Positions 340-12,137 of a stretch of DNA of 12,137 nt are shown here, in pieces (positions within the stretch are counted from its first letter, which is position 1; the number at the start of each line of letters is the position of its first letter). The stretch is from a virus. Its lineage: Duplodnaviria > Heunggongvirae > Uroviricota > Caudoviricetes. The DNA lies in IMG/VR virus record IMGVR_UViG_2541047502_000019; one strand, 5' to 3'. A program made the position numbers and the translations under genes. Below the pieces are notes generated by a model, which saw only the letters and a program-made list of their open reading frames with translations, was not told where the DNA came from and searched no databases.

Positions 340-364
340 TCTCCAGGAAAACCGGGGCGGTTCA
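340..364 (+). repeat. Right terminal inverted repeat of the IS (TCTCCAGGAAAACCGGGGCGGTTCA)
   Basis: Reverse complement TGAACCGCCCCGGTTTTCCTGGAGA versus left IR TGAACCGCCCCGGAAATCCTGGAGA at 11856-11880; TG...CA termini typical of IS3 family. Confidence 0.75.
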
Positions 365-1801
365 CAGCGGCGACCAGGCAAAAACCTTCTTCAGAAGTTC
401 CCAGCCAGCCTCAAAATAAGGACCAATGGTTTCCCAGAGCTTCTTGAAATAAGGTCCGACAACATCCCAGTTAGTGATAATTAATCCCGCAGCCAGGGCT
501 ATCGCCGTCGCAATCATTCCAATCGGCGTCATCGACATGATCCTGCTGACAATACTGATGGCACCGCCAACGCCCATCAATCCCAGTTTCAGAATCGCAA
601 GACCGGCAGCAAGCCCGACGACGCCGCGAATAACCCGGGGATTTTCATCCGCAAACTTCGTGAATTTTTCCCCTAACTCCCCCAGCCATTGCGTGATATT
701 TTTGGCGTCACCAGAAAATGCGCCGCCAATAGCCGCAAGGCCGTTAGTTGCGGTCCCCGTCATTGCCTCCCACAGGTTGGACAGCGTACCAAGCTGGGCC
801 TGAACACGTTTATTCAGGCTGGCCTGTTTATTCATCTTCTGCTGGATCTGATCGTAGCCATCCTTTCCTTTATCGATTAGTGCATTGACCACCTGAAGGG
901 TTTCGGCATCATCACCAAATATTGCCTTAAGTACACCTGTTCGCTTAACGTCGGTCAGTTTTCGCAGCTTTGCCAGTTGCCTGAACATGTTATCAAGACC
1001 GCCAAAACTTCCTTTGCCGTCAGTAAAATCGAGCTGTACCCCGAGTTTCTGGCGGGCCATGATTTTATTGACGTCCCTGATTTTCTTAACGCTTAATCCG
1101 GACTGGATAACTTTTCGCAGGGCGTTACCTGCCGACTCCCCGTTCATCCCCATCTGATCCATCATGACGCTGATGGGGGCAAGGCTCTGTGCAGCCTGAA
1201 GACCGTCCTTGTTCACCATCTTCAGAACAGAGCTGGTTTTAGTGAAGAAGGACAACATGTTGGTATCGTCAACACCCAGATAAAACGCCTTCTGGATAGT
1301 GTCGAACAGCCCCATCATGTCTTCTGACGCCGTTCCGGTAGCATCCTGCATCTTTGCAGCAAACTCAGCAGCCGCTTCCGGTGTTTTTTTCAGTTGTACC
1401 GCAAGATAAGCTGTCGCTTTACCCACACCGCCAAGAATGTTTTCTGCCGGGATCCCCTGACGCACCAGCATCTGCATCATGTTCTGGAAATCAGCCGTTG
1501 TACCGGGTAGCTGGTTACCCAGGCCAATAGCCAGTTTATTGATGTCCTGAAAGCTCTTTCCAACCTCGCCGTTCGCATCCATCATGGCGACTTTCAGCCC
1601 GGTGGCGGCGTTTTCCTGATCGGCATAAGATTTCAGGGAAAGCGTCAGACCCGCTGCCAGTCCGCCACCAAGCGCCAGCCCACCCTGTGACGCTTCTTCC
1701 GCCTGGCGTTTAAATCCCCGGATTTTCTTTTGCATTTTCGACAGCGCGGGAGAAAGCCTGTCGACACCGGTGATCAACGCCTTAAGCTCAAATTCCGCCA
1801 T
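362..1801 (-). CDS. Phage tail tape measure protein, C-terminally truncated by IS insertion (phage-derived coding sequence 365-1801; stop codon 362-364 is the IS terminus)
   Basis: 479-aa ORF starting at ATG 1799-1801 with AGGAG upstream. Ala/Gly/Leu-rich with a hydrophobic segment near the end, and positioned directly after the tail chaperone frameshift pair. It ends exactly at the IS boundary and is much shorter than typical tape measure proteins of contractile tails. Confidence 0.75.
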   Translation of the reverse strand: MAEFELKALITGVDRLSPALSKMQKKIRGFKRQAEEASQGGLALGGGLAAGLTLSLKSYADQENAATGLKVAMMDANGEVGKSFQDINKLAIGLGNQLPGTTADFQNMMQMLVRQGIPAENILGGVGKATAYLAVQLKKTPEAAAEFAAKMQDATGTASEDMMGLFDTIQKAFYLGVDDTNMLSFFTKTSSVLKMVNKDGLQAAQSLAPISVMMDQMGMNGESAGNALRKVIQSGLSVKKIRDVNKIMARQKLGVQLDFTDGKGSFGGLDNMFRQLAKLRKLTDVKRTGVLKAIFGDDAETLQVVNALIDKGKDGYDQIQQKMNKQASLNKRVQAQLGTLSNLWEAMTGTATNGLAAIGGAFSGDAKNITQWLGELGEKFTKFADENPRVIRGVVGLAAGLAILKLGLMGVGGAISIVSRIMSMTPIGMIATAIALAAGLIITNWDVVGPYFKKLWETIGPYFEAGWELLKKVFAWSPL

Positions 1802-2212
1802 GTGTGCGTTTCTCCTGCTCTATCCTGTTTGCCTGACTGACCAGCAAGGGAATTTCACTGATCGGCATATTCAGCAATTCGAAAGGATTAATGCGCCAGT
1901 AGCTGGCGCAGTCAAAGAAGCGATCAGTGAGGTATTCAGCCGTCAGGCCTGGAGGAAAAAACCAGCCACAAGCCACGCCGCTGCATTCAGGTCTGCCGGA
2001 GACATCTGGTCGACAGAGCTTTGCGGCACTTTCGCCAGCCGCACAATGTATTTCGACACCACATGCGCCAGAAGTCTGACTGACTCATCCTGATTCATCT
2101 GGTAGGGATACCCCAGCTCGCGGACATCCTTCCCGGTGGGTTCATCAAACTCCAGTACGGAGAGTGTCTCGCCATGAGCAGTAATCGGTTTCTTTAACTC
2201 AAGCTCTTTCAT
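1788..2212 (-). CDS. Predicted -1 frameshift fusion product of the tail assembly chaperone (GT / E+E' analogue), about 141 aa
   Basis: Track ORF 1788-1976 overlaps the chaperone ORF in the -1 frame and has no independent ATG or RBS (it begins at GTG inside the chaperone). The geometry matches the conserved chaperone frameshift upstream of tape measure genes. Confidence 0.45.
1943..2212 (-). CDS. Tail assembly chaperone (lambda G / P2 E analogue)
   Basis: 89-aa ORF between tail tube and tape measure genes. Start ATG 2210-2212 overlaps the tube stop (TAATG). Its last codons contain a U-UUU-UUC slippery heptamer. Confidence 0.7.
   Translation of the reverse strand: MKELELKKPITAHGETLSVLEFDEPTGKDVRELGYPYQMNQDESVRLLAHVVSKYIVRLAKVPQSSVDQMSPADLNAAAWLVAGFFLQA
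1955..1961 (-). other. Candidate -1 programmed ribosomal frameshift slippery heptamer U UUU UUC (plus strand GAAAAAA)
   Basis: Zero-frame codons GGU UUU UUC lie 3 codons before the chaperone stop. The -1 frame stays open from here to a stop at 1788-1790, 8 nt before the tape measure ATG. Confidence 0.5.
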
Positions 2213-2568
2213 TACTGGTAATCCCCTTCTTCACCGTGGAACTCAAGATCAACCGTGCCTTCTTCGGCATTATGGTTCGCTTCGCCGTGCAGCCAGGCAG
2301 ACGACAGTACATAGACCTGACCGTTCGCCAGCTCGGCAGTGATGGTCATCTCATCAGACGAGGTGATTTTGCTTACCGGAAAATTCTTCGGCACCTTGAA
2401 GGTCCCTTTGACATAAGGCGCACGGTGAGTTTCCTTGCGGTCCACTGAACCGTCCAGGCCGATGATGTCATCGTTAACCGTTTTGTTCATGGGCACCTCA
2501 ATGCCGCCGGTCAGCGATAGCTGCTGACCGTCAATTTTGAAATAACAGGTTCCCCCGATACGGGCCAT
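2212..2568 (-). CDS. Phage tail tube protein (contractile tail, Mu gpM-like)
   Basis: 118-aa ORF immediately downstream of the sheath gene with TAATG overlap at 2566-2570; size and position typical of myovirus tube proteins. Confidence 0.7.
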   Translation of the reverse strand: MARIGGTCYFKIDGQQLSLTGGIEVPMNKTVNDDIIGLDGSVDRKETHRAPYVKGTFKVPKNFPVSKITSSDEMTITAELANGQVYVLSSAWLHGEANHNAEEGTVDLEFHGEEGDYQ

Positions 2569-11507: not shown

Positions 11508-11516
11508 ATGCGGCAC

Positions 11517-11632
11517 TCCTGGTTAAATTTCATTTTTCGCGGGTATAAAAAAACGATGGGGCGGGCAGTCCGGAAGACGTCAGGTCACAGGGATTTGACC
11601 CGCCCCTCCCCTCTGGCAGTGGGAACTGGTTC
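11517..11632. other. Candidate cos / packaging-recognition region between the HNH and small terminase genes
   Basis: Non-coding gap flanked by HNH and terS genes, the usual cos location in HK97-like genomes. Contains a perfect 8-bp inverted repeat GGGGCGGG (11558-11565) / CCCGCCCC (11599-11606) and an internal GACGTC palindrome. Confidence 0.3.
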
Positions 11633-11855
11633 TTACTTCAGCCGTTCACGGGCCGTCTTCGCCTTATGACACGGCCAGCACAGGCTCTGCAGATTGCTGT
11701 CGGCATCAGTGCCGCCATGCGCTTTAGGGATGATGTGGTCAACGGTTTTCGCCTCGCGCACCACACCGGCACGCAAACACAACTGACACAGGCCTTTGTC
11801 ACGCTTTAGTACACGCCCCCGGATAACATCCCATTTCGAACCATAACCGCGCTGG
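11633..11855 (-). pseudogene. HNH endonuclease (terminase-associated), 5'-truncated by IS insertion
   Basis: Minus-strand frame ending at TAA 11633-11635 encodes QRGYGSKWDVIRGRVLKRDKGLCQLCLRAGVVREAKTVDHIIPKAHGGTDADSNLQSLCWPCHKAKTARERLK with CxxC...DH...N...CxxCH HNH motifs. Upstream the frame runs into the IS with no in-frame ATG/GTG/TTG before the next stop at 11945. Confidence 0.65.
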
Positions 11856-12137
11856 TGAACCGCCCCGGAAATCCTGGAGACTAAACTCCCTGAGAAAGAG
11901 GTAAACAGGATGACTAAAAATACTCGTTTTTCCCCCGAAGTCCGTCAGCGGGCGATTCGTATGGTTCTGGAAAGTCAGGATGAATATGACTCACAGTGGG
12001 CGGCAATTTGTTCCATTGCCCCAAAGATTGGCTGTACGCCGGAGACTCTGCGTGTCTGGGTTCGCCAGCATGAGCGGGATACCGGGGGCGGTGATGGTGG
12101 GCTCACCAGCGCTGAACGTCAGCGTCTGAAAGAGCTG
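11856..12137 (+). mobile_element. IS3-family insertion sequence, left (5') end of a second copy (same family and orientation as the element at 1-364), continuing beyond the window
   Basis: Starts with TGAACCGCCCCGGAAATCCTGGAGA (left IR, 11856-11880), followed by an RBS and the OrfA start at 11910. Confidence 0.85.
11910..12137 (+). CDS. IS3-family transposase OrfA (helix-turn-helix protein), 3' partial
   Basis: ATG at 11910-11912; translation [76 protein letters not shown] runs to the window end without a stop. Resembles IS629/IS3411-type OrfA as recalled. Confidence 0.8.

Follow-up and report, generated by a model that had tools for sequence, protein, structure and literature searches.

Probable separate insertions of IS629/IS1203 in the HNH endonuclease and tape-measure genes of an SfV-like prophage in Escherichia coli O157:H7

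Introduction

Insertion elements of the IS3 family transpose by a copy-out/paste-in route through a circular intermediate and generate a 3-bp target duplication. Insertion of IS629, together with IS-linked deletion, is a recognised main source of small structural differences among E. coli O157:H7 genomes, and patterns of IS629 sites serve for typing. In phages the tape-measure protein is required for tail assembly. The 1.31-kb O157 element is called IS629 in the literature (PMC10758439); it outnumbers every other IS in O157, where it brings about both gene inactivation and deletions (PMC9943667, PMC10758439). An SfV-like prophage has been reported in 87% of tir 255 A-allele strains (PMC10758439), and for phage HK97 a passage in PMC9410871, citing Kala et al. 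2014, describes the HNH protein gp74 as promoting cos cleavage.

The present study analyzes a stretch of phage late genes with IS3-family sequence at each end. The window, i.e. the whole stretch of DNA analyzed, is the complete draft contig AVRQ01000026.1 (12,137 bp) of assembly GCA_000462225.2.

Results

Both ends of the window are fragments of the IS3-family element IS629/IS1203. Positions 1..364 (+ strand) are its 3′ 364 bp (IS positions 947-1310), comprising the end of orfB with the transposase DDE/integrase core (codons at 2-319, stop at 320-322; Pfam rve_3, rve_2, rve) and the right inverted repeat (IRR) at about 340-364, ending GGTTCA. At the other end, positions 11856..12137 (+ strand) are the 5′ 282 bp (IS positions 1-282), with the left inverted repeat (IRL) at about 11856-11880 and the helix-turn-helix start of orfA at the ATG at 11910 (Pfam HTH_Tnp_1). 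The right end stops at 364 (...CCGGGGCGGTTCA) and the other left end begins at 11856 (TGAACCGCCCCGG...), so that the 5′-TG...CA-3′ termini typical of the family both lie inside the window. Comparison of IRL (TGAACCGCCCCGGAAATCCTGGAGACT) with the reverse complement of IRR (TGAACCGCCCCGGTTTTCCTGGAGAGT) showed the first 13 bases to be the same, with a further nine matches at positions 17-25. The two fragments match one complete 1310-bp copy (L001, 19492-20801) at 364/364 and 282/282 bases with no mismatch, which is not chance, and the 5′ fragment is equally identical to complete copies in L003 and L007. In the full copy orfB lies in the -1 frame, and identical copies in O157:H7 carry the RefSeq name [quoted passage not shown]; the frameshift site itself falls outside the window, which holds the start of orfA and the end of orfB only. 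The first-pass annotation had described two directly oriented IS3-family ends at 364 and 11856, and both coordinates were exact, with one and the same element on the + strand at each.

The 11,491 bp between the IS ends (365-11855) show 100% identity to the prophage of NZ_CP032793 (L002), which is uninterrupted and belongs to bovine-biased O157:H7 strains, and are colinear with it at both ends. Against Shigella phage SfV (NC_003444) the same interval showed 97.6% nucleotide identity over 98% of its length, with gene-by-gene matches to SfV orf53 and orf1-orf14, as expected of an SfV-like myovirus. All of its genes lie on the - strand. Beyond the tape-measure gene come a tail assembly chaperone (1943-2212, extended in the -1 frame to 1788; Pfam Phage_TAC_7), for which frame analysis placed a slippery sequence T TTT TTC at 1955-1961, a tail tube protein (2212..2568; Tail_tube) and a contractile tail sheath protein of 498 aa (2568..4064; Phage_sheath domains). 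Five small genes equivalent to SfV orf6-orf10 span 4048..5995 and encode a DUF2635 protein (4048-4218), a tail terminator (4227-4787), a tail completion/neck protein (4784-5290), a head closure protein (5265-5675) and a head-tail connector (5672-5995). These are followed by an HK97-type major capsid protein of 409 aa (6074..7303; Phage_capsid), an HK97-family prohead protease (7314..7916; Peptidase_S78), a portal protein of 408 aa (7909..9135; Phage_portal), a 53-aa hypothetical protein (9125..9286), the 577-aa terminase large subunit (9283..11016; TerL_ATPase, TerL_nuclease) and the P27-family terminase small subunit (11013..11507; Terminase_4). Names from the tail tube and sheath through the terminase subunits follow the RefSeq annotation of identical sequence. 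Between the terminase small subunit and HNH genes, positions 11570..11580 (about 11574/11575) match the ends of the linear SfV genome and thus cos, a placement based on alignment that stops at SfV position 1 with the remainder matching the SfV right end. An Rfam scan of the window detected no RNA family above threshold.

At the right end the IS cuts the HNH endonuclease gene after codon 43 of 116. The 3′ part (11633..11855, - strand; Pfam HNH), identified by translation against the intact 116-aa protein, encodes residues 44-116 and keeps the HNH motif; the start and the first 43 codons have been removed by the IS, and RefSeq labels the remnant "HNH endonuclease, incomplete, missing N-terminus". 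This HNH-C|IRL junction occurred in 20 complete genomes, and in 19 of these the 5′ part of the gene, which the first-pass annotation had expected outside the window, follows directly past the IS as the reciprocal IRR|HNH-5′ junction, indicating simple insertion. Strain MB9-1, the only one of the 19 read base by base, showed a 3-bp TGG target duplication. In addition, a 43-aa HNH N-terminal fragment ending exactly at the junction was found on about 800 draft contigs. The exception among the 20 was strain 7409, in which 324 bp beside the HNH IS are lost. We considered whether lack of a target duplication together with this adjacent deletion might be the general state and rejected it, given the HNH 5′ part in the 19 others; the deletion in 7409 seems to be a small event akin to the predicted IS-IS deletion.

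At the left end the tape-measure gene (362..1801, - strand; Pfam PhageMin_Tail) is cut after codon 479 of 611. It equals residues 1-479 of the intact 611-aa protein, with positions 365-1801 derived from phage and the stop TGA (362-364) contributed by the IS terminus. As with HNH, relatives lacking the IS have the intact gene at exactly this position, confirming that both junctions fall inside phage genes. Draft assemblies encode the exact 479-aa truncated protein in 41 blocks, of which 38 are on contigs of 10-20 kb. Neither the tape-measure IS junction nor its reciprocal was detected among 5,426 complete RefSeq E. coli genomes, and in the 912 that carry this stretch of the gene it was uninterrupted in all (912/912). 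The missing 3′ part was recovered from drafts as exact C-terminal fragments, 131 aa from M481 on 50 contigs and 132 aa from G480 on 24, with baseplate genes downstream. The accessions of C- and N-terminal fragments are a few hundred apart (EEQ8028661/EEQ8029072, EET6006467/EET6006846), which we take to mean that both halves occur in the same assemblies. Contigs with the C-terminal fragment stop within 0-2 nt of the insertion site, and the outer IS flanks lie beyond the window contig.

All four combinations of tape-measure and HNH insertions exist, including a tape-measure IS with intact HNH. The latter is the state of assembly L006, and because of it the two insertions do not fit neatly into one nested history.

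Other IS629/IS1203 insertions were present in this prophage, one in the portal gene (L003) with a 3-bp duplication GTG, and one in an O121 strain (L004), where it enters the tape-measure gene, with a 3-bp duplication CCG. A distinct SfV-like prophage, 97.6% identical, has contigs that stop within 2 nt of the tape-measure IS site. The 13-mers abutting the left IS end matched the inverted repeat at 9/13 and 8/13 bases for the two window sites, and at 3/13 and 4/13 for two other insertions. Insertion beside IR-like sequence was rejected as a general rule on the basis of these two low scores and because scores of at least 9 arose in 13% of random 60-nt windows.

Discussion

Patterns detected are consistent with two separate copies of IS629/IS1203 in an SfV-like temperate prophage with an HK97-type head and a Mu-type contractile tail, the window being a contig assembled from short reads of an E. 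coli O157:H7-type genome, and we assign this explanation as a whole a probability of about 0.9. Both copies would have inserted in the same orientation, antisense to the late operon, one entering the HNH endonuclease gene, which lies immediately upstream of cos and terS, and the other the tape-measure gene. The presence of two copies is inferred from the junctions rather than read through, because the contig holds only non-overlapping IS end fragments; the contig ends inside IS repeats because the assembly broke at a multi-copy IS that the assembler did not resolve. Bracketing by IS thus partly reflects the breaking of short-read contigs in repeats. The source-genome arrangement of the pieces is drawn from draft contigs only, since the tape-measure junction is absent from complete genomes, and would be the colinear order of the prophage in situ.

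An alternative explanation could be a single IS copy whose two ends form the two ends of the contig, which would then represent either a tandem duplication or, in linear form, a 12.8-kb circle of the module and one IS. The non-overlapping fragments (947-1310 and 1-282) and the module would indeed close into a 12,801-bp unit, and a whole-window search joined both fragments in just this way on genomes with one IS. The 17 complete genomes that appeared to cover 100% of the window proved to be this artefact, two pieces joined around a single IS, and their tape-measure gene is intact. A single copy would not account for the four different IS junctions in the lineage, IRR|TMP-N and HNH-C|IRL in the window and the contig ends at TMP-C and HNH-N in drafts, because of which at least two copies are needed. 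Moreover, a tandem duplication would leave the tape-measure gene whole and produce a branch at 365, yet the contig continues unbroken through 364 bp of IS sequence, and dozens of independent assemblies contain contigs of this structure. We therefore regard a single copy as extremely unlikely. Somewhat less improbable, though still very unlikely, is that the tape-measure IS marks an IS-mediated deletion or rearrangement, with loss or relocation of the gene's 3′ portion and of the baseplate/fibre genes, or a composite-transposon move. Consistent with this, no complete genome shows the sequence left of the tape-measure IS, adjacent deletions are a known product of IS629 in combination with the IS-excision enhancer (PMC9943667), strain 7409 lacks its 324 bp, and one 131-aa C-terminal fragment lies on a 5.5-Mb contig with no recorded N-terminal fragment. 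Against it, the C-terminal fragments start exactly at residue 480/481, retain their downstream baseplate genes and have accessions near those of the N-terminal fragments; the module is colinear with the intact prophage at both of its ends; and in MB9-1 the HNH IS has a 3-bp duplication of its own, not one shared by a composite unit.

With two separate insertions the prophage would no longer be able to produce infectious particles, because tail assembly depends on the tape-measure protein and, in HK97-type packaging systems, HNH aids cos cleavage by terminase; by removing both functions the insertions probably lock the prophage in place. The proposal in the first-pass annotation of IS-driven prophage decay is supported, each check that it suggested having turned out in favour, but the state is better described as early decay than as a remnant because the prophage is otherwise intact in relatives. 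Recombination between the IS copies could potentially delete the 11.5-kb module, as was also proposed there, but the predicted deletion product was not found in the 5,426 complete genomes; nor was any transposed copy or deletion product of the IS-flanked segment found. It is also conceivable, but in our view unlikely, that the same tape-measure nucleotide is a recurrent IS629 target and that the insertions are reversible. This reading draws on the contig ends of the distinct SfV-like prophage and on the four insertion combinations. Were it true it would imply repeated insertion at one specific site or else clean excision mediated by IEE, and IS629 would be a recurrent, partly reversible switch disarming the SfV-like prophage family, with the IS-bracketed head/tail module a unit able to loop out.

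IS629-driven prophage inactivation in O157:H7 is already known biology, and beyond strain typing the two insertions have little significance. For that purpose they serve as lineage markers, identifying a subgroup of the strains with the SfV-like prophage. A practical reminder is that a draft contig with IS sequence at both ends is a sign of repeat-induced assembly breaks.

Comparison with known systems

The closest counterpart of the inserted element is IS629 (also IS1203; IS3 family, IS51 group) in O157:H7 prophages, with which it shares a length of 1310 bp, TG...CA termini, imperfect terminal inverted repeats, and an orfA (helix-turn-helix) and orfB (DDE integrase core) for which a programmed frameshift is annotated. 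The 3-bp target duplications made by IS629 were read at the HNH insertion of MB9-1 and at the L003 and L004 insertions. In O157:H7 prophages, many copies per O157 genome, inactivated phage genes and adjacent deletions are seen. We found no difference in kind, except that the tape-measure insertion allele is known only from draft assemblies (0/5,426 complete RefSeq E. coli genomes). The prophage itself is closest to SfV and its relatives SfI, SfII and SfIV, at 97.6% nucleotide identity across the module and with the same order of genes: HNH, cos, terS, terL, portal, protease, capsid, connectors, sheath, tube, chaperone and tape measure. It differs in its host, here E. coli O157:H7, and in the two IS629 interruptions that result in two truncated genes, and, beyond the window, the relatives examined depart from SfV in their lysis, iss and tail fibre/pin invertase regions. 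Finally, the arrangement resembles a composite transposon or IS-bounded deletable segment, in that two direct copies of one IS surround an 11.5-kb segment that homologous recombination would excise as a circle with one IS. Classification as a composite transposon was rejected, as the sequence at both inner junctions is colinear with that of the prophage lacking the IS copies and TGG in MB9-1 flanks the HNH IS alone. Unlike the cargo of such a transposon, the segment consists of the prophage's own DNA, still in the original order, and the HNH IS has its own target duplication in relatives.

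Results

Both ends of the window are pieces of the same type of insertion sequence. Positions 1-364 (+ strand, the end of orfB, with Pfam domains rve, rve_2 and rve_3; terminal letters ...CCGGGGCGGTTCA) correspond to element positions 947-1310, and positions 11856-12137 (+ strand, 282 bases, the start of orfA, with Pfam HTH_Tnp_1; opening letters TGAACCGCCCCGG...) to positions 1-282, each with 0 mismatches to the complete 1310-bp copy in E. coli O157:H7 strain 7409 (L001, NZ_CP038423, 19492-20801). RefSeq labels that copy [quoted passage not shown], and the 1.31-kb element is named IS629 in the O157 literature (PMC10758439). 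The left and right terminal inverted repeats (IRL and IRR) are identical over the first 13 bases, with the TG...CA termini of IS3-family elements, and because both fragments lie on the + strand the copies stand in direct orientation. The first-pass annotation, which had described two directly oriented copies of one IS family around phage late genes, was therefore right on family and orientation and exact in its IS end coordinates. An exact match of the 479-aa tape-measure product shows that the window is the entire 12,137-bp draft contig AVRQ01000026.1 (assembly GCA_000462225.2); there are 12-21 IS-matching places per O157 genome, and the window stops inside the IS because this multi-copy repeat broke the assembly. 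We infer two copies from two junctions, and this was evaluated with data from outside the window.

The intervening DNA (365-11855) has 97.6% identity to Shigella phage SfV across 98% of the segment and 100% identity to a prophage that many O157:H7 genomes carry; in a published survey of O157:H7 strains, an SfV-like prophage occurred in 87% of those with the tir 255 A allele versus 7% of those with the T allele (PMC10758439). The phage genes all lie on the minus strand and are transcribed in the order HNH endonuclease (3' part only), small and then large terminase, a 53-aa ORF, portal, HK97-type protease and capsid, connector and neck proteins and tail terminator, a DUF2635 protein, sheath and tube, tail assembly chaperone, and tape measure (5' part only). 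The termini of linear SfV DNA (cos) correspond to ~11574/11575, which lies between terS and the truncated HNH gene and within a G-rich/C-rich inverted repeat (ggggcggg...cccgcccc), so the packaging site is still inside the IS-bracketed module. The chaperone gene (1943-2212, minus strand, Phage_TAC_7) has a slippery T TTT TTC at 1955-1961 (minus strand) shortly ahead of its stop codon and a -1 frame open to 1788, adjoining the tape-measure start. This arrangement is the programmed frameshift of the G/GT type that is conserved in tail chaperones; annotations give the short product only. Outside the window, in the relatives L001 and L002 (strain NZRM3614, with an intact prophage), iss, encoding the serum survival lipoprotein, lies just beyond HNH, and at the other prophage end there is an invertible segment of tail-fibre genes with pinE; the tail-fibre genes of L001 are opposite in orientation to those of L002.

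That both junctions fall inside phage genes was borne out by comparison with strain NZRM3614, where the same 11,491 bp is present with no IS at either side and the intact products are a tape measure of 611 aa and an HNH protein of 116 aa. In the window the tape-measure frame covers residues 1-479 and then runs into TGA, the IS terminus TCA (362-364) read on the opposite strand, while the HNH frame covers residues 44-116, keeping the HNH motif and lacking the first 43 codons.

Transposition in the IS3 family proceeds by copy-out/paste-in via a circular intermediate with a 3-bp target duplication, which three duplications in the SfV-like prophage family (TGG, GTG and CCG) confirmed. The junction of the HNH 3' part with IRL was found in 20 complete genomes, and in 19 of the 20 the missing 5' part of HNH follows IRR. 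In strain MB9-1, TGG stands on both flanks of the HNH IS, as expected of a simple insertion with its normal 3-bp duplication. About 800 draft contigs carry a 43-aa N-terminal piece of HNH that stops precisely at the junction codon, so this insertion characterizes a large set of sequenced strains. Strain 7409 is the sole exception among the 20: its HNH IS is without the TGG duplication (L001 19492-20841 versus L007, the MB9-1 locus, 1271-2620), 324 bp are missing beside the right IS end, and IS position 1297 is A, not C. Most simply, this state would have arisen by recombination with another IS629 copy nearby, a smaller counterpart of the deletion that the first-pass annotation predicted for the whole module. 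Alternatively, the state looks like an adjacent deletion of the type made by the IS-excision enhancer, which promotes IS629 excision with adjacent deletions (PMC9943667).

The junction of IRR with the tape-measure gene was found in 0 of 5,426 complete RefSeq E. coli genomes and its reciprocal in none of the complete genomes searched, the stretch being uninterrupted in all 912 complete genomes that contain it. Despite this absence the insertion is real and recurrent. The exact 479-aa N-fragment is indexed in 41 draft-assembly blocks, 38 of which are on 10-20 kb contigs, and the missing 3' part is retained in draft assemblies as exact C-fragments of 131 aa from M481 (50 contigs) or 132 aa from G480 (24 contigs). 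NCBI accession numbers of C- and N-fragments lie within a few hundred of each other (EEQ8028661/EEQ8029072, EET6006467/EET6006846), which we take to mean that both are in the same genomes. These data fit a simple insertion in which neither half of the gene was lost, with an expected, rather than directly read, 3-bp duplication of CAG. The 131-aa fragment (P0036) is also recorded on a 5,510,912-bp contig, the longest contig for the N-fragment being 23,292 bp; this may be a closed genome with the C-fragment and without the module, i.e. the predicted deletion product, and the junction of that product was found in none of the RefSeq complete genomes.

Discussion

The contig L006 (GCA_012808895.1, AATHPP010000051.1), matching window 366-11801, ends 1 nt from the tape-measure/IS junction; its HNH gene is intact (116 aa), and a further 11.8 kb of sequence lies beyond. 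Each of the four possible combinations of the two insertions therefore occurs, which implies either that the HNH IS was once cleanly excised or that one insertion recurred at an identical nucleotide. In a distinct SfV-like prophage (97.6% nucleotide identity), contigs from two other assemblies end no more than 2 nt from the same site (L008 1-60, GCA_022996605.1; L009 1-60, GCA_024497755.1), which hints at a preferred IS target or insertion hot spot. An IR-like target sequence was tested as a general rule and did not generalize to other insertions. IS629/IS1203 has also inserted independently at other sites of this prophage family, in the portal gene of O157:H7 SS TX 313-1 (L003 13710-15019, duplication GTG) and the tape-measure gene of O121 WL1277 (L004 6095-7404, duplication CCG). 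The O121 copy has 55 differences from the O157 copy over 1310 positions and lies near the window's site, with an annotated N-terminal gene part of 1368 nt versus 1437 nt in the window. Genomes E203449 and APEC 102026 also have an IS in the tape-measure gene. As to the source of the new copy, position 1297 is A in the tape-measure IS of the window, and the HNH IS in each of the 19 complete genomes has a single-base difference from the A-type query (C at 1297 in MB9-1), so the tape-measure IS was probably not copied from its neighbor.

Loss of the C-terminal 132 tape-measure residues would be expected to block tail assembly, and loss of the start and N-terminal 43 residues of HNH to impair cleavage at cos; gp74, the HNH protein of HK97, promotes terminase cleavage of cos (PMC9410871, citing Kala et al. 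2014). The original observation is confirmed and its interpretation as IS-driven prophage decay supported, the tape-measure allele itself serving as a lineage marker only. IS629 is a known cause of gene inactivation and deletions in O157 (PMC9943667), and the present case, a phenomenon already known in kind, is a textbook IS629 inactivation of prophage genes in E. coli O157:H7 viewed via a repeat-broken draft contig.
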